From IMG/VR virus record IMGVR_UViG_2630968543_000002: DNA of 41,923 bases. One strand, 5' to 3'. Shown here in pieces: positions 5,332 through 35,411 of this stretch. Below the pieces are notes generated by a model. The model made no database searches. It was not told the origin of the DNA and saw nothing but the letters and a program-made list of their open reading frames with translations. The stretch's first letter is position 1. Each line of letters opens with the position of its first letter. Both the position numbers and the translations under genes were made by a program. The DNA comes from a virus (taxonomy: Duplodnaviria; Heunggongvirae; Uroviricota; Caudoviricetes).

Positions 5332-5916
5332 TTATTGTTTATTTTTTTCGTTCTGGTTGATGACAAATTCAATGTAACTTTCGATCTTTGCTTTCTCGGT
5401 TTCGGGTAACAATGCGTAGCGCGAGCGGTCATAGTTGATGGTCGCAGGGTCGTGCGGGTGAATCAGTAATTCATAGCCGTGACGCCCGAATGCGGATGCA
5501 ACATTCTCCAGGGTGGAAATGGAAACGCTGACCTCATTGTTTAACAGGCGGCTGATTGTTACCTGGGCGACGCCGGATGCGCGGTGAAGTTTTCCCTGTG
5601 TTGAAAGGTCGCGGCTTTCGCTCATCCAGCGTTCCAGGTTGTGAGCCGCCAGCTGACCAATGTCGCTTGGGCCGACAGGCTGAAAACCTTCCTGAGAAAG
5701 CGAGCGATCGATATCAAGCCAGTTACGGGGTTTATTGGCGGCAGCTTCAATTTTTCGCGCAACCTGGTCGCCGATAACCTTCTTGCCAAGAGCCCAGCGG
5801 TTTACCAGATTTGCCTGAGTTCCAAGTTTTTCTGCCATCCGCGTCTGAACACCATTGAATTCACGGTCGATCAAGTCGTTGAGATTTTGCCTGCGGACGT
5901 CCTGGATACTTTTCAT
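5332..5916 (-). CDS. Prophage repressor with two tandem HTH domains (CI analogue); no S24 peptidase domain evident
   Basis: 194-aa ORF with two HTH-like segments (QTRMAEKLGTQANLVNRWALGKK and GVAQVTISRLLNNEVSVSISTLENVA); divergent from the Cro-like gene across an operator-rich spacer. Confidence 0.75.
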   Translation of the reverse strand: MKSIQDVRRQNLNDLIDREFNGVQTRMAEKLGTQANLVNRWALGKKVIGDQVARKIEAAANKPRNWLDIDRSLSQEGFQPVGPSDIGQLAAHNLERWMSESRDLSTQGKLHRASGVAQVTISRLLNNEVSVSISTLENVASAFGRHGYELLIHPHDPATINYDRSRYALLPETEKAKIESYIEFVINQNEKNKQ

Positions 5917-6070: not shown

Positions 6071-6301
6071 ATGAGCGATAACGGACATTTCGATTTCAAA
6101 AAGCACTGGCTTGCACTTACTCCGGATGAGCGTGAAGCCTTCGCACAGGAAGCCGGAACGACGAGTCACTATATCCAGACTCACTTAACAGGTAAGCGCA
6201 AAATGCCAGGTAAGGTATTGATGAATGGGCTTTTTAAAGCCTGTAAAACAAGACAATGGCTGCGCTCAAAAGCAGAACTGGCATACTTCTTCTACTCATG
6301 A
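6071..6301 (+). CDS. Cro-like small DNA-binding protein
   Basis: 76-aa ORF divergent from the repressor, followed by a terminator; putative HTH segment EAFAQEAGTTSHYIQTHLTGKRKMP. Confidence 0.65.
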   Translation: MSDNGHFDFKKHWLALTPDEREAFAQEAGTTSHYIQTHLTGKRKMPGKVLMNGLFKACKTRQWLRSKAELAYFFYS

Positions 6302-8364: not shown

Positions 8365-8379
8365 TTACCTCAGGGGTAA
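8365..8379. promoter_or_regulatory. Perfect operator palindrome TTACC-TCAGG-GGTAA, 4 nt upstream of the 8383 start codon; TATGTGGTT motif 5 bp upstream (8351..8359)
   Basis: Direct reading. Confidence 0.55.
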
Positions 8380-29661: not shown

Positions 29662-32136
29662 ATGAGACAGGAATGTATACAAGCGGTCCAGCAGGCGGCG
29701 CAGCGCACGTTAACGGCGCGAGAAATACAGAACATTGAAGACCGCATTTATCGAAATATGCGCTCCATTGCTCGTGATGACCCGATGTCGTGGAGACAAC
29801 TTTCCGAATCAGAGCGGCTATATCGTGCAGCACAATTGGCATCTGAAGAATTACAGCGAGAAGCGGCATTAAAGAAACGTCGTGTGGCCCTCACTATATC
29901 CGCACGTCAGAGATTGGATAAATTTATCAATAGCTATCAAGGGGCTGATGGGAAACTTGGCGCTCTTAACCGTACTATTGCTTTTAATGCAGACGGTAAA
30001 TCGAATTTCCTCTCTGTTGAGTCCAGAACAAAAGCCACTCGTGATTATGCATTGAGTCAATTGCAAGAGGCATTTGAAGCAGTTGATCCTCGCTTTTTTG
30101 GCCTGTTTGAAGATGAAGCTGGCGTGCGTGACCTGGTATATGAAATGCGAGGGCAAAATACTGGCAATGCTAAAGCAAGAAAAGGTGCTAAGGCGTGGAG
30201 AGAAGTGACAGATCTACTGCGCCGCCGGTTTAATGATGCTGGTGGGGACATTGGCTATCTCGAAAACTGGGGAATCCCTCAACATCATTCTATGGAAAAG
30301 GTTGGGGCGGTATCAAAGGATAAGTGGGTTAGCGATGTTATAGGTAAGCTGGATCGCAAATATTATATCCGAGCCGATGGACAACTGATGAACGATTCCG
30401 AGTTGTCTGCATTTCTTGGAGAGGCTTATAACACGATCGCTACTGGTGGGCTGAATAAGCTTACTGATACCGGAATGCGAATTTCAGGCGCACGTGCTAA
30501 CCGTGGTAATACATCACGACAGATACATTTCAAAGATGCAGATTCCTATCTGCAATATCAGCAACTTTATGGCGATCGCTCTCTATGGGAAATCATGGTC
30601 GGTCACCTGGAAGGTATCAGTAAAGATATTGCACTGGTGGAAACATATGGCCCAAACCCCGATCATGTTTTCCGCTCTCTTCTTGATCAGGTGAAGGCAG
30701 AAACGGCAACAGCTAACCCGAGTAAAACCGGTAAAGTCGAGCGGCTGGCGAACAATACAGAGAATCTGTACAACTTTATTTCCGGAAAGACACAGCCTGT
30801 AGCGAATCCGCACATCGCGCGATGGTCTGACAATATCCGCAACTGGCTGGTTGCCAGCAGACTCGGATCCGCGTTGCTGTCATCGTTCTCTGATCTTGGA
30901 ACCATGTATCTGTCTGCGAAGGTGACCAACCTTCCAATGAACCAGTTATTCCGCAACCAGCTTGAAGCTATGGACCCAACGAACCGTACAGAACTTGCGC
31001 GGGCGCGCCGCGCTGGTCTGGCGATGGAATCTCTACTTGGCAGCGTTAACCGCTGGGCGATGGATAATATGGGGCCGTCTGTGTCTCGTTGGGCTGCAAC
31101 GGCGGTAATGCGTGCCAGTGGGCTTACAGCATGGTCAGATGCGCACAAGCGCGCCTATGGCGTAACCATGATGGGAAGCTTGGGAGAAGTAGTGTCACGG
31201 ACACCAGACCTTCGTAGCCTCGATGATTCTGATTTTCGCATCCTGAAAAGCAAAGGGATTACTGACACAGACTGGAGCGTATGGAAGCTGGCGCAACAGG
31301 AGGACTGGGGGAACGGCAATAATACGATGCTGACACCGGAAAGCATTATGCGTATCCCTGATTCAGCAGTTAAACATCTTGGTGAGCCTGAACGCGTGAA
31401 ATTTGAGGCAATGCGTAAACTGCTCGGTGCCATAACTGAAGAAGTTGATATGGCTGTTATTACACCGGGAGCACGTGAGCAACTGATAACCGGTTCTGGT
31501 ATTCAGCGTGGAACATGGAAAGGTGAATTAACGAGAAGTGTTTTCCTGTTTAAATCGTTCCCTATCTCGGTGGTTATGCGTCACTGGTCACGCGCTATGG
31601 GTATGCCGTCTGCTGGTGGGCGTGCGGCATATATTGCGACGTTTATTGCCAGTACGACCATTCTTGGCGCTTTGTCGCAGCAACTTAACGACCTTGCGTC
31701 TGGTCGTAATCCTCGCGAGATGACAGGAGAAGATGCTGCTAAATTTTGGCTTGGTGCTCTACTGAAAGGTGGTGGTCTTGGCCTTTACGGTGACTTTTTA
31801 TTGTCAGATCACACTAGGTACGGAAGCGGCGCGCTGGCGTCGATGCTTGGCCCGGTAGCTGGTCTGGTTGATGACGTAGTGAAGATTGCTCAGGGCATAC
31901 CGTTAAATGCTGTGGAAGGGAAGAGTGAGCAGACTGGTGGTGATCTGGTTAAGCTGGGGAAAGGTCTGATGCCAGGTGCGAATCTCTGGTACTTGAAGGC
32001 GGCTCTCGATCACATGATCTTTAACCAGATGCAGGAGTATTTTTCACCAGGTTATTTGCGTAAAATGGAGCAACGTTCGAAGAAAGAGTTTAACCAGACA
32101 TACTGGTGGCGACCACAGGATGTCACTCCGCAATAA
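29662..32136 (+). CDS. Internal virion / ejection protein (gp16-like, part 2)
   Basis: 824-aa ORF; last gene of the core-protein operon. Confidence 0.55.
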   Translation: MRQECIQAVQQAAQRTLTAREIQNIEDRIYRNMRSIARDDPMSWRQLSESERLYRAAQLASEELQREAALKKRRVALTISARQRLDKFINSYQGADGKLGALNRTIAFNADGKSNFLSVESRTKATRDYALSQLQEAFEAVDPRFFGLFEDEAGVRDLVYEMRGQNTGNAKARKGAKAWREVTDLLRRRFNDAGGDIGYLENWGIPQHHSMEKVGAVSKDKWVSDVIGKLDRKYYIRADGQLMNDSELSAFLGEAYNTIATGGLNKLTDTGMRISGARANRGNTSRQIHFKDADSYLQYQQLYGDRSLWEIMVGHLEGISKDIALVETYGPNPDHVFRSLLDQVKAETATANPSKTGKVERLANNTENLYNFISGKTQPVANPHIARWSDNIRNWLVASRLGSALLSSFSDLGTMYLSAKVTNLPMNQLFRNQLEAMDPTNRTELARARRAGLAMESLLGSVNRWAMDNMGPSVSRWAATAVMRASGLTAWSDAHKRAYGVTMMGSLGEVVSRTPDLRSLDDSDFRILKSKGITDTDWSVWKLAQQEDWGNGNNTMLTPESIMRIPDSAVKHLGEPERVKFEAMRKLLGAITEEVDMAVITPGAREQLITGSGIQRGTWKGELTRSVFLFKSFPISVVMRHWSRAMGMPSAGGRAAYIATFIASTTILGALSQQLNDLASGRNPREMTGEDAAKFWLGALLKGGGLGLYGDFLLSDHTRYGSGALASMLGPVAGLVDDVVKIAQGIPLNAVEGKSEQTGGDLVKLGKGLMPGANLWYLKAALDHMIFNQMQEYFSPGYLRKMEQRSKKEFNQTYWWRPQDVTPQ

Positions 32137-32330: not shown

Positions 32331-32370
32331 AACGAATGCCACCGCCGCCCGGACGGGAATCCGCAGACAC

Positions 32371-32391
32371 AAAAAAGCCCGCGGCGCGGGC
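32371..32391 (-). terminator. Rho-independent terminator for the minus-strand two-gene operon
   Basis: GCCCGC-GGC-GCGGGC hairpin followed on the minus strand by six U (plus A-run 32371..32376). Confidence 0.6.
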
Positions 32392-32831
32392 TATTCTTCT
32401 TCATCATAAAAAAGCGGATTGTCGTTTCCATCTGATGAAAGGAAAGGTATGTGTTCTCTTGAAAATCCAACAACGACAATTTCATTATCATTTTTTGCAT
32501 AATGAATGCATTCATTAGAATGCATTCCGCCGGGGTTGAAATTTAAGTTAATGGTATAATTCTTAAATGTGTTTGGATACCATGTTGGCCCACAATGATA
32601 ATGCCAATAATTCTCTTGCTCATAATTGTCTGAGCCGGGAATTTTATCATGGTTATCATCAACCCACGATGGCTTGTTTTTTCCAACAAGCGCCCTTCCA
32701 TTGGCAACATCTTCTAAAAACCTTTGTATGATTTTTATTTCATCGTCAGTAAGGAAAGGTCCGTCTACAGCGAAAGGGGTGTTGCTTTCCCCATTTAGAA
32801 AACTATTAGATATTCTAATGTTAAACTTCAA
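32391..32831 (-). CDS. Hypothetical protein (146 aa), acidic C-terminus, no recognisable domain; second gene of the accessory operon
   Basis: TTG start with AGGAG 6 nt upstream, 20 nt after the stop of the small upstream gene. Confidence 0.5.
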   Translation of the reverse strand: MKFNIRISNSFLNGESNTPFAVDGPFLTDDEIKIIQRFLEDVANGRALVGKNKPSWVDDNHDKIPGSDNYEQENYWHYHCGPTWYPNTFKNYTINLNFNPGGMHSNECIHYAKNDNEIVVVGFSREHIPFLSSDGNDNPLFYDEEE

Positions 32832-32851
32832 GACAAACTCCTAATGTGCTT

Positions 32852-33019
32852 CTATTTGGAGCGAAATGCCGCCTTGAAGTCGCTGAAAGATGTTCCTGTC
32901 TGGTAAACCATATCCTTGTCGCGCTCTTTGCTTGCGCGGCCAAGCATAACTTTTCCAATGACATCCCAGCATTGCTTGGCTTGTTCATTGTGCTGAGTAC
33001 GATTTTTCAACGCTGTCAT
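32852..33019 (-). CDS. Small hypothetical protein (55 aa); first gene of the accessory operon; not in the ORF track
   Basis: Hand translation MTALKNRTQHNEQAKQCWDVIGKVMLGRASKERDKDMVYQTGTSFSDFKAAFRSK; GGAGG 6 nt upstream. Confidence 0.5.
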   Translation of the reverse strand: MTALKNRTQHNEQAKQCWDVIGKVMLGRASKERDKDMVYQTGTSFSDFKAAFRSK

Positions 33020-33031
33020 ATCGCGCCTCCT

Positions 33032-33075
33032 TTACCTTTAAGGTAATAGTACGCTATTCACCCCCAGTCTGCAAT
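33032..33075 (-). promoter_or_regulatory. Sigma70-like promoter (-35 TTGCAG, 17-bp spacer, -10 TACTAT) with a perfect operator TTACC-TTAAA-GGTAA (33032..33046) overlapping the -10/+1
   Basis: Direct reading of the minus strand. Confidence 0.6.
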
Positions 33076-33119
33076 CTGTACAGAATTATTTAAAGGCACA
33101 TCCCTGTGCCGCCGTTCCG

Positions 33120-33812
33120 TCAGAAAAATCCTGCTTTATCGTTGATGTACTCCGCGTGGGTCTCGATATCACGCAGGCATTTGCTCACACCGACGATGTA
33201 GCAGAACATGGTGGTCAGCTCCGCCGCCGCGCCCGATACGTCGTGCCCGTCTTCCTGTAACTGGTTCAGCAGATTCATCAGCAGTGAGTTCTCCGTCAGG
33301 CCGAGAACACCAGACGGCGAGTGAATCAGACTGCGGTAGCCGGGCTTCAGTGGGGCGCTGTAGGTTTTGTTCTCTATCTTCATTGCCTGCATCACTGCTG
33401 ACGCCGTGGCGTTGGCAACCTGGTCGGCAACCATCTTTATGCGTTCTTCCTGCGGGAGCGAGTTTTTAATGTAGCTTCCGGTGCGGCGGATCTGAGGAAG
33501 AACCTCACCTGTAACCCATTCAAGAAATCTGAATGCTCTCGTTCCCTCTGTCATTGCCTCTTTGCAACGCAGAATAAGGATGTAGAGACCTGATTCTGAA
33601 ACGATGGATAGTTCTTGTATTCCACCAGGGGTCTGTATTGAATGCAGCCCCTTTTTGTTCCAGCCTTTTTTATCAAGTTTTCTCGCTTGTGTAACATCAA
33701 TATTCAAAGCATTGCACACATCTTTGGTGACAAACCAAGGTTCTCCGTCAATCATGAACATACGGATCTGGCAGGATGACTCAAAGGAAAAGATGGAAGG
33801 TTTGGTATTCAT
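33120..33812 (-). CDS. Bro-N domain protein / putative antirepressor (Ant-like)
   Basis: N-terminal Bro-N signature (IFSFESSCQIRMFMIDGEPWFVTKDVCNALNI); AAGGTGA 5 nt upstream of ATG 33812 (ORF opens at 33857 with TTG); C-terminal domain paralogous to gene 34959..35216. Confidence 0.75.
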   Translation of the reverse strand: MNTKPSIFSFESSCQIRMFMIDGEPWFVTKDVCNALNIDVTQARKLDKKGWNKKGLHSIQTPGGIQELSIVSESGLYILILRCKEAMTEGTRAFRFLEWVTGEVLPQIRRTGSYIKNSLPQEERIKMVADQVANATASAVMQAMKIENKTYSAPLKPGYRSLIHSPSGVLGLTENSLLMNLLNQLQEDGHDVSGAAAELTTMFCYIVGVSKCLRDIETHAEYINDKAGFF

Positions 33813-33966
33813 GGCGATCACCTTTGTAGTTAGGTTAATCACCACCGCTGAGACCAATCAGATGGTGGTGAACTGTGCAGAGTTGGTCTTACCGGCTACA
33901 AAGGAACCCGGCGCACCTTTCGGTGCCCCCACACAGCCCACCATAGAATAGGTGCGCTTTACACAT

Positions 33967-34080
33967 AAAAAAACCGCTTATGCGGCATATGTGCCTCTGT
34001 AGTAATCCGGGAGACCAATCCCGGCACTGGATTTTGCCAGTGCCCGATTACTATGGCACAAGAGGAGTGCGATGTAAATT
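33967..34080 (-). ncRNA. Candidate structured leader or small RNA upstream of the Bro-N gene (tentative)
   Basis: Minus-strand promoter (-35 TTGATT, 17-bp spacer, -10 TATCAT) abutting the operator at 34080..34094; two stable hairpins (34007..34024 and 34024..34043) and a short GC stem followed by seven U (33967..33985). Confidence 0.25.
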
Positions 34081-34094
34081 TACCGAAAAGGTAA
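34080..34094. promoter_or_regulatory. Perfect operator palindrome TTACC-GAAAA-GGTAA
   Basis: Direct reading. Confidence 0.55.
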
Positions 34095-34172
34095 TGATAA
34101 GCGCGAAAAAACATTAAAATCAACCGTATTTGGTTGATTGCGTTTAACGCTTGATCACCTGAAAGCAAGATA

Positions 34173-34187
34173 TTACCTTTAAGGTAA
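34173..34187. promoter_or_regulatory. Perfect operator palindrome ATTACC-TTTAA-GGTAAT preceded by AGATAT (-10-like), 21 nt upstream of the 34208 start codon
   Basis: Direct reading; core 15-mer identical to the site at 33032. Confidence 0.55.
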
Positions 34188-34207: not shown

Positions 34208-34936
34208 ATGGAAGTTTTCTGGATAGTTGTTGGTGTGGTTGCGGTGATTATTTACGTTATCAACCAGAACAAGACTAAGATCTCTGATCGTACGGTCGTT
34301 AATCAGAACAAAACGATAAAGACCGAAGATGGGGAGATAACGATTAATCGTACACAGGTGATAGAGCACACATCTACTCAGTTTCAAAAAACTGGAGGTA
34401 ACGCTCCTGATATTTCCGTACCTCCTGCTTATGATAGTGCGGTAATCCAGACATATTATAAACAGCAGGAGTTAGCAAAAGAGAGGCAACTGATTCAGCC
34501 AAAGCCGTTTACAGCTGAGCTTCCACCTGGAGTGTCAACGCGTCCGGCATATCATGGAAGATTCCCTGGTGATGACATATCGTCTCAGTCATTTAAAAAA
34601 GCACCTCAGGCAGTATCAGAGCCAGCAAGAATATCTTCTGTATCGCCGCCAAAAGAAGAATCAGCTAACAGAGTTTCAAGCGGTAGCAAGCAGTGCTTGC
34701 GATGCAGAATAAACCTTCCATATGAAAAATTCAGGAAATCGTCAAAAAATCCGGATGGATTGACTAAGTGGTGTGCAAGGTGTCTCGATGGCCCAAAGAA
34801 TACACGTCATATGAAGTGGTGCCCAATTTGTAATGTCCGCAGAAAACGAACCAGCTTTTACCCTAATAATCAAAATGCGGACGGCTTAATGGCATGGTGC
34901 AAAACGTGCTGGGACGAGCACAAAGCGAAACGATAG
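34208..34936 (+). CDS. Membrane-anchored protein with two C-terminal zinc-ribbon-like repeats (unknown function)
   Basis: N-terminal hydrophobic helix (EVFWIVVGVVAVIIYVI); two repeats of C-x2-C-x16-17-DGL-x3-WC-x2-C; GAGG Shine-Dalgarno. Confidence 0.65.
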   Translation: MEVFWIVVGVVAVIIYVINQNKTKISDRTVVNQNKTIKTEDGEITINRTQVIEHTSTQFQKTGGNAPDISVPPAYDSAVIQTYYKQQELAKERQLIQPKPFTAELPPGVSTRPAYHGRFPGDDISSQSFKKAPQAVSEPARISSVSPPKEESANRVSSGSKQCLRCRINLPYEKFRKSSKNPDGLTKWCARCLDGPKNTRHMKWCPICNVRRKRTSFYPNNQNADGLMAWCKTCWDEHKAKR

Positions 34937-34958: not shown

Positions 34959-35216
34959 TTACCTGGTTTGTTTTCGTAATTGTTCGGCACAATAGTCGAG
35001 ATGTGTTTGCAGATCCTGCATAGACATCTGTGAGCTGGTGACGTAGTTAATCAGTGCAGTCAGTTCGGCAAGTGGGCCATCGACATTAAATCCATCCTTA
35101 TTGAGATCCCGGAGTAATTTCATCAAGTGCGATCCCTCCACCAGTGACCTGACGCCTCCCGGCGTGTGAATCCTTTCGGTAAATCCGTCTTCCAGTGGAT
35201 AGTGATACTGCTGCAT
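34959..35216 (-). CDS. Hypothetical protein (85 aa), paralogue of the C-terminal domain of the Bro-N protein
   Basis: ATG at 35216 with GGAG upstream; TERIHTPGGVRSLVEGSHLMKLLRDLNKDGFNVDGPLAELT aligns with RSLIHSPSGVLGLTENSLLMNLLNQLQEDGHDVSGAAAELT. Confidence 0.55.
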   Translation of the reverse strand: MQQYHYPLEDGFTERIHTPGGVRSLVEGSHLMKLLRDLNKDGFNVDGPLAELTALINYVTSSQMSMQDLQTHLDYCAEQLRKQTR

Positions 35217-35292
35217 CTTATCTTCTCCATGCAATAACTGTATATTTATACAGTAGCAAATAATTTGTTTGCTATCCAGCACGTTTTGCAAA

Positions 35293-35307
35293 TTACCTGA
35301 AAGGTAA
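35293..35307. promoter_or_regulatory. Perfect operator palindrome ATTACC-TGAAA-GGTAAT between divergent gene 34959..35216 and the tailspike; TATGTGGTT motif and a GGTAAT half-site follow at 35339..35358
   Basis: Direct reading. Confidence 0.55.
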
Positions 35308-35411
35308 TATCTATTAGTATTCACAGTATTTCTATCCATATGTGGTTTTTCAGGTAATAGAATAACCAGATATGCGGCGCAACGGGTGCTGCGACTATCT
35401 GGAGATTTAAC

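Follow-up and report, generated by a model that had tools for sequence, protein, structure and literature searches.

A candidate toxin–antitoxin-like gene pair, predicted to be gated by the prophage repressor, in an epsilon15-like prophage of Escherichia coli

The DNA considered here, hereafter the window, is a stretch of 41,923 nucleotides (IMG/VR virus record IMGVR_UViG_2630968543_000002) and is an epsilon15/phiV10-like (Uetakevirus) prophage of Escherichia coli. Between positions 32,371 and 33,075, its minus strand carries a two-gene operon in which a gene for a 55-amino-acid (aa) protein precedes a gene for a 146-aa protein, under a promoter overlapped by a perfect palindrome. This pair is examined below as a candidate toxin–antitoxin (TA)-like module. 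Its features are as follows, in the direction of transcription (ORF, open reading frame).

33069..33074, minus strand: -35 hexamer TTGCAG, matching 3/6 consensus positions
33046..33051, minus strand: -10 hexamer TACTAT, matching 4/6 consensus positions, 17 nt after the -35 hexamer
33032..33046, palindromic: operator TTACCTTAAAGGTAA, TTACCTT-A-AAGGTAA, perfect 7+7, covering the end of the -10 hexamer and the predicted start site (~33039)
33026..33030, minus strand: Shine-Dalgarno sequence GGAGG, 6 nt 5' of the ATG
32852..33019, minus strand: 55-aa ORF, ATG at 33019
32838..32842, minus strand: Shine-Dalgarno sequence AGGAG, 6 nt 5' of the TTG start
32391..32831, minus strand: 146-aa ORF, TTG start at 32831
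32368..32392, minus strand: intrinsic terminator AGCCCGCGCCGCGGGCT with its T-run, found by terminator scan, part of the common backbone

This layout agrees with an earlier, sequence-only reading of the locus, which had placed the TTGCAG and TACTAT hexamers 17 bp apart on the minus strand and had described the 55-aa ORF with its GGAGG, the 20-nt gap, the 146-aa ORF with its AGGAG and TTG start, and a GC-rich terminator at the end of the operon. The gap between the two ORFs does span 20 nt and holds the AGGAG, and the terminator hairpin (32392..32376) has a stem of 7 bp, 6 of them GC, followed by TTTTTTGTGTC. The overlap of promoter and operator proposed in that reading is equally borne out, as the palindrome (33046..33032) has for its first T the last T of the -10 hexamer. 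On the other hand, calling the promoter near-consensus was an overstatement: it matches the sigma-70 consensus at 7/12 positions, and a scan with this consensus did not report 33046..33074. The promoter is credible because it is identical in relatives carrying different cargos and because its geometry is repeated at other operator-bearing promoters. A scan of the region with Rfam returned sub-threshold chance matches only. The hairpin at 32376..32392 is terminator-like on both strands and may also halt the convergent structural-gene transcript, the 824-aa gene of which ends at 32136.

The signals of the operon are common to relatives that carry other genes at the same place. In phage TL-2011b, homology with the window resumes exactly at the operator (33031) and the terminator side is also covered, while everything between them differs. 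The promoter is identical in phiv142-3, in TL-2011b and in E. coli prophages with other cargos, and the terminator is conserved downstream of other cargos. The slot of TL-2011b holds a 59-aa basic ORF (gp45, isoelectric point (pI) 10) and a 181-aa protein (gp44) recognised by the Pfam YafO_toxin model with 26.3 bits, for a threshold of 25. BLASTP found no similarity to the TL-2011b cargo proteins for either protein of the window pair, and the TL-2011b pair had zero matches among the models of PADLOC-DB 2.0. Other E. coli prophages have a 210-aa hypothetical protein behind the identical promoter and operator, another has a different, 211-aa protein behind a different copy of the operator, yet another has a DUF4760 protein, and in phiV10 the slot is empty. 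Within loci L051-L054, the slot (32415..33030) was seen to hold two versions of the 210-aa protein, the 211-aa protein, which has no Pfam domain, and the DUF4760 protein. The slot behaves as an accessory-gene hot spot, in which promoter, operator and terminator are phage backbone and the genes are cargo. The regulated promoter previously credited to the operon as its own is hence better described as part of this backbone, like the operator and the terminator.

The operator itself is one of many. With up to two mismatches, the palindrome occurs at 9 sites in the window, for 0.11 expected by chance, and its core TTACC-N5-GGTAA (up to one mismatch) occurs at 14 sites, the cI/cro region included.

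5198, 5260, 5972, 6020, 6357, 8303, 8365, 12845, 12863, 16053, 33032, 34080, 34173 and 35293: the 14 operator sites, 15 bp each
5332..5916, minus strand: CI-type helix-turn-helix repressor gene, the putative operator binder as judged from a Pfam HTH_3 match and the layout of the sites
6071..6301, divergent from the repressor gene: cro-like gene

Operators 5972 and 6020, along with a degenerate third, lie between the repressor gene and the cro-like gene, and operators 5198 and 5260 lie downstream of the repressor gene, ahead of leftward recombination genes. The remaining ones front other operons, including the Bro-N antirepressor gene (34080) and two neighbouring genes (34173, 35293), and the dispersed operators taken together front early, antirepressor, packaging and structural-region operons. 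This dispersion recalls the scattered C1 operators of phage P1. Several operator-bearing promoters have a common geometry, with a -35 hexamer TTGAYW, a spacing of 17-18 nt and a -10 hexamer that runs into the operator by one base, its first T; this geometry is found at 8365, 34080 and 5198 as well as at the promoter of the pair. The epsilon15 record NC_004775.2 annotates 'protein_bind, repressor, lysogeny' sites with the sequence ATTACC-N5-GGTAAT, and the operator positions of the window are syntenic with them. It has been reported that the repressors of phiV10 and phiv142-3 have the sequence of the ZX5 repressor, the overexpression of which shut off lytic genes, while the epsilon15 repressor was reported to be only 42% identical (PMC9782041). 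A comparison of operator and repressor co-variation indicates that epsilon15 uses the same operator motif despite this divergence of its repressor. In Serratia and Pectobacterium prophages which carry the pair beside a Bro-N gene, TTACC-N5-GGTAA is also found just upstream of the pair.

Collectively, these data identify the palindrome as a consensus version of the prophage-repressor operator of Uetakevirus (ATTACC-N5-GGTAAT), to which the repressor would bind, and place the operon in the repressor regulon. Repression of the module in a stable lysogen, with a switch to expression at infection or induction, is therefore predicted. The palindrome was also considered as an autoregulatory site of the 55-aa protein; this possibility was rejected, as there are 14 such sites in the window and the site is kept when the cargo is swapped.

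The 146-aa protein is acidic (pI 4.7), falls into phrog_5954 (function unknown) and is named 'hypothetical' throughout the source databases. AlphaFold2, with 30 homologues as input, gave a model with a predicted local distance difference test (pLDDT) score of 92.2 and a predicted template-modelling (pTM) score of 0.87, in which an antiparallel sheet is packed on N-terminal helices in a RelE-type arrangement. Foldseek searches of the PDB gave a correct ranking without significance, and those of the BFVD viral structures gave no match. By this model, the protein has the fold of the RelE/ParE (BECR) superfamily.

A profile search of 1.84 billion representatives returned 117 relatives, of which 89, down to 22% identity, were included in the family alignment; smaller sets of 17 and 30 sequences were also prepared. 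Only H77, H79 and H127 are invariant among the 89 sequences, and G50, N52, K53, S55, Y78, Y111 and F130 are conserved in at least 90% of them. H77 and H79 are located in the predicted strand 75-79, H127 just past the last strand and Y111 in the neighbouring strand. The catalytic residues of the RelE-superfamily toxin YafQ are H50, H63, H87 and F91, and those of YoeB include H83 and Y84; the His and Tyr positions of the 146-aa protein are presumably equivalent to these. Most likely, H77, H79 and H127, along with K53 and Y111, form an endoribonuclease active site.

YafO is one of the 13 Pfam toxin families with a BECR fold, and its genes have an antitoxin-then-toxin order (PMC11980606). An alignment of nine YafO-family toxins, namely eight plasmid proteins annotated as YafO or YafO-family and TL-2011b gp44, was compared with the window family by hhalign. 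The 17-sequence family alignment scored 69.5% (E 4.3e-5 over 84 columns) and the 89-sequence alignment 33.9% (E 4.3e-4 over 91 columns), and both runs paired GRNK with GRD, WHYH with HIH and TS..VIHY with TSD.LVY. Single YafO sequences reached only 1-2%, and a single YafQ sequence gave nothing. The profile link to YafO is moderate, suggestive rather than proof, and the 146-aa protein is probably a remote sister of YafO in a previously unmodelled family.

A RelE/ParE-type fold might also serve a function other than RNA cleavage, for instance in a ParE-like gyrase poison or a protein binder, the His residues then binding a metal or a ligand. The position of the invariant His residues, which presumably coincide with catalytic residues of YafQ and YoeB, argues against this explanation, while the acidic surface of the protein, atypical for ribosomal A-site binders, argues for it. 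It has also been pointed out that the BECR fold by itself cannot tell RNases from gyrase inhibitors (PMC11980606). As YafO, the closest sequence family, degrades mRNA (PMC11980606, PMC2814082), a non-RNase function is considered improbable.

The 55-aa protein is basic (pI 9.8; phrog_8607). Its AlphaFold2 model consists of one long helix with modest confidence (pLDDT 74), and no Pfam or NCBIfam domain, no DNA-binding domain and no PADLOC-DB 2.0 match could be detected in it. Compared with copies from Serratia, Pectobacterium, Erwinia and Pantoea, the small gene and the large gene both have a proportion of synonymous differences (pS) of 0.72-0.91, which is saturated, and a proportion of nonsynonymous differences (pN) of 0.25-0.41. 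Such a low pN with a saturated pS shows that both ORFs are real genes under purifying selection.

The pairing of the two genes is conserved. A homologous gene of 55-62 aa lies 5' of the large gene in all six Enterobacterales contexts examined (6/6), and the two genes abut or overlap each other in Serratia, Pectobacterium, Pantoea, Proteus and Erwinia. In five of the six contexts, the start codon of the large gene is TTG or GTG, which would keep its translation below that of its partner. More generally, almost all of the loci examined, whether in a prophage or elsewhere, have an upstream partner next to the large gene. An adjacent, co-oriented pair is kept across unrelated genomic contexts, including those in Pasteurellaceae, Aeromonas and Neisseriaceae, a property by which type II TA systems are recognised. 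Distant relatives have upstream genes of 64-103 aa, abutting or overlapping. One of them, P0171, keeps every motif of the family and is overlapped over 8 nt by a 92-aa RelB gene (PF04221, 49.5 bits), the pair being located inside a type III CRISPR-Cas locus. Type II systems typically exchange the type of antitoxin while the toxin is conserved. In this locus (L039, 2730..3378), the short, 125-aa family member and the RelB-domain gene lie between Cas_NE0113, which directly follows a CARF/Card1 gene, and cas2/cas1.

A longer partner is encoded upstream in Pasteurellaceae and Neisseriaceae, where the pair is part of a P2/HP1-like tail cluster. The C-terminal ~40 residues of this partner match the hidden Markov model (HMM) of the small protein at the equivalent position (18 bits in Haemophilus influenzae, weaker in the others), a match that is suggestive only. 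The YafO-family toxins of IncF and other plasmids (L042-L050) have an unannotated protein of ~180 aa encoded 5', with a hydrophobic N-terminus, and these partners have the same architecture as the Pasteurellaceae and Neisseriaceae ones (L018-L032, 159-211 aa). When the long partners from Pasteurellaceae were compared by BLAST with the ~180-aa partners of the plasmid YafO toxins, no significant similarity emerged.

The same observations bear on a different explanation, in which the operon encodes an early-expressed phage effector pair, with a nuclease acting on host or competitor RNA, as T4 RegB does, and a small protein acting as cofactor, specificity subunit or chaperone. Through its operator, the operon does share the repressor regulon with the antirepressor and early genes, and its partner protein bears neither a DNA-binding domain nor an antitoxin signature. 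In Pasteurellaceae, the partners are long and multi-part, and the family is nearly always found in prophages (beside antirepressors, within tail clusters or following a MuF polyvalent protein). However, the Erwinia chromosomal pair stands alone, flanked by accA and an IF-2B-family gene and away from any phage genes, a genuine RelB antitoxin accompanies one family member, an alternative cargo of the slot is a YafO-family toxin, and the conserved weak TTG/GTG start fits control of a toxin:antitoxin ratio. An effector pair is a minority interpretation, to which about one chance in five is given.

Experimental data relevant to the TA-like interpretation come from phage phiv142-3 of avian pathogenic E. 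coli. A Δorf10 mutant of this phage has been reported to grow normally in LB medium, to be less fit in serum and in chickens and to have reduced serum survival and kps transcript levels, colonisation being restored with a plasmid that carries 'orf10' and its putative promoter (PMC7724020). In the GenBank record of phiv142-3 (MN187550.1), 'Orf10' is a 52-aa product read in another frame within the 146-aa gene, and the intact 146-aa gene (TTG start; L001 3291..3731, equivalent to window 32391..32831) was left out of the annotation. In orthologues from other genera, the Orf10 frame is interrupted by 6-13 stop codons; the window copy has 6 and phiv142-3 has 5, the open stretch in the latter being only 56 codons long. 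Mapping of the deletion arms indicated that Δorf10 removed codons 44-96 of the 146-aa gene, including the GKNKPSW and YWHYHCG motifs. The Δorf10 deletion, annotated in the wrong frame, disrupted the RelE-fold gene.

It could still be argued that the 52-aa Orf10 is the functional unit, a lysogenic-conversion factor raising K1 capsule expression and serum resistance, with the 146-aa frame being incidental. The serum and kps phenotype of Δorf10 and its complementation from a plasmid are in favour of this explanation (PMC7724020). However, the Orf10 frame is broken by stops whereas the 146-aa frame is conserved under purifying selection, and the deletion took two invariant motifs of the latter. 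The complementing fragment carried a 'putative promoter region' of unspecified extent (PMC7724020), so the complementation does not decide between the two frames. Orf10 as the functional unit is very improbable.

Normal growth of the codon 44-96 mutant in LB is expected if the toxin, not the antitoxin, has been removed. In addition, quantitative reverse-transcription PCR on a phiv142-3 lysogen detected 'orf10' RNA, which rose 2^4.12-fold in serum, the sole comparable rises being those of orf41 (2^4.56) and orf40 (2^3.68) (PMC7724020). The cro-like gene is followed first by orf41 and orf40, which, like the orf9-'orf10' operon, come immediately after an operator. This concerted rise supports transcription of the operon and its co-regulation with repressor-controlled early genes.

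Considering these lines of evidence, the favoured explanation, to which a probability of about 55% is given, is that the pair is a type II TA-like cargo under prophage-repressor control, composed of a YafO-like, RelE-fold, His-dependent endoribonuclease and a small helical inhibitor. It would represent a new TA-like family gated by the prophage repressor, for which we infer toxicity, neutralisation and RNase activity. In the proposed mechanism, the 55-aa helical protein would be the constant partner and most likely neutralises the large protein by direct binding. As the partner has no DNA-binding domain, the module would not be autoregulated. Control would instead be delegated to the immunity repressor through the backbone sigma-70 promoter, with the operator lying over the -10 box and start site. 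Expression of the pair would be low in a stable lysogen and would be switched on with the antirepressor and early operons once the repressor is absent or inactivated, by infection or induction. The strong Shine-Dalgarno sequence and ATG of the partner, compared with the TTG of the toxin, would bias synthesis toward the partner. Possible roles include stress- or induction-coupled growth control, exclusion of other phages and host shut-off. At the yafNO promoter, the -10 box and start site are covered by a LexA box (PMC2814082), which provides a precedent for a YafO-type module gated by a repressor from outside the module. A resemblance to TA modules had already been noted in the sequence-only reading, on grounds of gene layout; it is strengthened here by the RelE/ParE fold, the His triad, the moderate YafO link, the conserved partner, the RelB-paired member and the YafO pair in the same slot.

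Several observations weigh against this interpretation. The 146-aa protein has no significant sequence match to any Pfam or NCBIfam model or to any model of known anti-phage defence systems (PADLOC-DB 2.0), none of the 89 relatives matches a Pfam family, the Pfam YafO_toxin HMM finds no match in 17 diverse members even at E up to 10, and a profile search of PDB sequences returned chance matches only. The partner resembles no known antitoxin and its model is only modestly confident; its length of 159-211 aa and hydrophobic N-terminus in Pasteurellaceae and Neisseriaceae are also uncommon features in antitoxins. A DNA-binding, autoregulatory antitoxin was not found either, the sole operator at the promoter being that of the prophage repressor, although autoregulation by the antitoxin is common, not universal, among type II systems. 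The predicted control by the repressor would be an odd design for an addiction or abortive-infection module, as repressor gating fits poorly with a constitutively expressed one. Lastly, the median pI values of the family (5.0 for the large protein, 9.65 for the partner) are the reverse of those of RelE and RelB. This last objection is weakened because YafO-family toxins are also neutral to acidic (pI 5.2-8.7), with a small ORF of pI 10 in TL-2011b, and the idea that the charge reversal excludes a toxin was rejected on the same ground.

A broader and more speculative extension is that the slot works as a repressor-gated tripwire, in which interchangeable toxins (of the window family, YafO and others) are kept silent under the immunity repressor and fire upon its loss or inactivation. 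Triggers may include, for example, SOS, serum stress or the antirepressor of an invading phage. The extension is doubtful at this stage. If true, it would couple the loss of immunity to a shut-off at the RNA level, serving either to take over the host upon induction or to abort infection by heteroimmune phages, and it would represent a general wiring of toxin modules to the lysis-lysogeny switch instead of antitoxin autoregulation.

Regarding distribution, the 32371-33075 region is 100% identical to that of E. coli VR50 and 96-97% identical to those of phages phiv142-3 and HEMP4. Part of the region is matched in 534 of 5426 complete E. coli genomes (~10%), and the full gene pair is present in 77 of them (~1.4%). 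The large-protein family extends over Enterobacterales, Pasteurellaceae, Aeromonas and Neisseriaceae.

The immediate surroundings of the operon comprise the following elements.

33120..33857, minus strand: Bro-N antirepressor gene, the upstream neighbour of the pair, with its own operator-overlapped promoter at 34080..34123
33095..33110, minus strand: hairpin GGCACA-GGGA-TGTGCC, 3' of the antirepressor stop codon, read directly

This hairpin is a weak terminator-like element between the antirepressor gene and the promoter of the pair, and it fails the T-run criterion of the terminator scan. Further upstream, a 126-aa ORF (34959..35339, minus strand) probably starts at an internal Met to give an 85-aa protein (phrog_450). 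This phrog also matches residues 162-243 of the neighbouring Bro-N antirepressor (33120..33857, minus strand), which suggests that the locus holds a free-standing copy of the antirepressor C-terminal domain with its own operator (35293). A 242-aa protein (34208..34936, plus strand; phrog_6762, function unknown) contains repeated zinc-ribbon/endonuclease VII-like motifs; its gene is located directly behind a second perfect consensus operator (34173..34187), divergent from the antirepressor gene. On the other side, ~190 bp present in phiv142-3 and TL-2011b are absent from the window at 32367|32368; the missing stretch codes for a 53-aa 'transmembrane anchored protein', downstream of the cassette terminator.

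These results have several implications. The family is a candidate fourteenth sequence family of RelE/ParE toxins, with a new family of partners. Epsilon15-like prophages possess a fixed promoter-operator-terminator cassette which swaps cargos, at least two of them toxin-type, and is predicted to be wired to the immunity repressor; this wiring makes the timing of toxin expression directly testable. The published virulence phenotype of phiv142-3 'orf10' is re-interpreted as the consequence of a RelE-fold gene disruption.

Comparison with known systems helps to delineate what is shared and what is specific. Epsilon15 has operators like those of the window, with copies of ATTACC-N5-GGTAAT at OL, ahead of the terminase and portal regions and of the resolvase gene, and at gp19/tail fibre. 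Unlike the window, it has no antirepressor or cargo slot between gp18 and gp19, and the operator-gated cargo cassette is found in the E. coli, Serratia and Pectobacterium relatives. The gp45-gp44 pair of TL-2011b has the identical promoter, operator and terminator, and in it, too, a small basic ORF precedes the gene of an acidic toxin-family protein, but no pairwise similarity is detectable for either protein and gp44 passes the YafO_toxin threshold whereas the window protein does not.

The PaaR2-PaaA2-ParE2 system from E. coli O157:H7 prophages also combines a RelE/ParE-fold toxin, a very small antitoxin without a DNA-binding domain and a separate phage-type repressor. Its regulator gene is within the module and its toxin is of the ParE type, with no His triad; the regulator of the window pair would instead be the prophage's own immunity repressor, with many operators. 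The RelBE, DinJ-YafQ and YefM-YoeB systems share with the window family His residues in the sheet and after the last strand, which we take to be equivalent to those of YafQ and YoeB, and one member of the family is paired with a RelB-domain antitoxin. In contrast, there is no profile similarity, the window protein is ~50 residues longer and acidic rather than basic, and its partner has neither a ribbon-helix-helix nor a Phd DNA-binding domain.

The closest system is YafN-YafO (PF13957), in which YafN is a Phd/YefM-type antitoxin. Here, the Pfam YafO_toxin HMM misses all members of the window family, which has its own WHYHCG and GKNKPSW motifs and, in its Enterobacterales branch, a loop of ~25 residues between the WHYH and IHY strands, and the partner is a 55-aa helical protein unrelated to YafN. 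The two systems nonetheless have in common a BECR/RelE-superfamily toxin, putative in the window pair, of similar size which is neutral to acidic, the antitoxin-then-toxin order, a succession of motifs that may be the same (G-R/K-D/N, an H-x-H strand, a TS..h-h-Y strand and a C-terminal His) and a promoter gated by an outside repressor over the -10 box and start site, LexA in one case and, as predicted, the prophage repressor in the other. Prophage accessory loci with a toxin of the RelE superfamily and a partner encoded upstream were already known, and the operator motif had been annotated in epsilon15; what is new is the family of the large protein and that of its partner, the His triad, the swappable cassette with its predicted repressor gating and the re-reading of phiv142-3 'orf10'.

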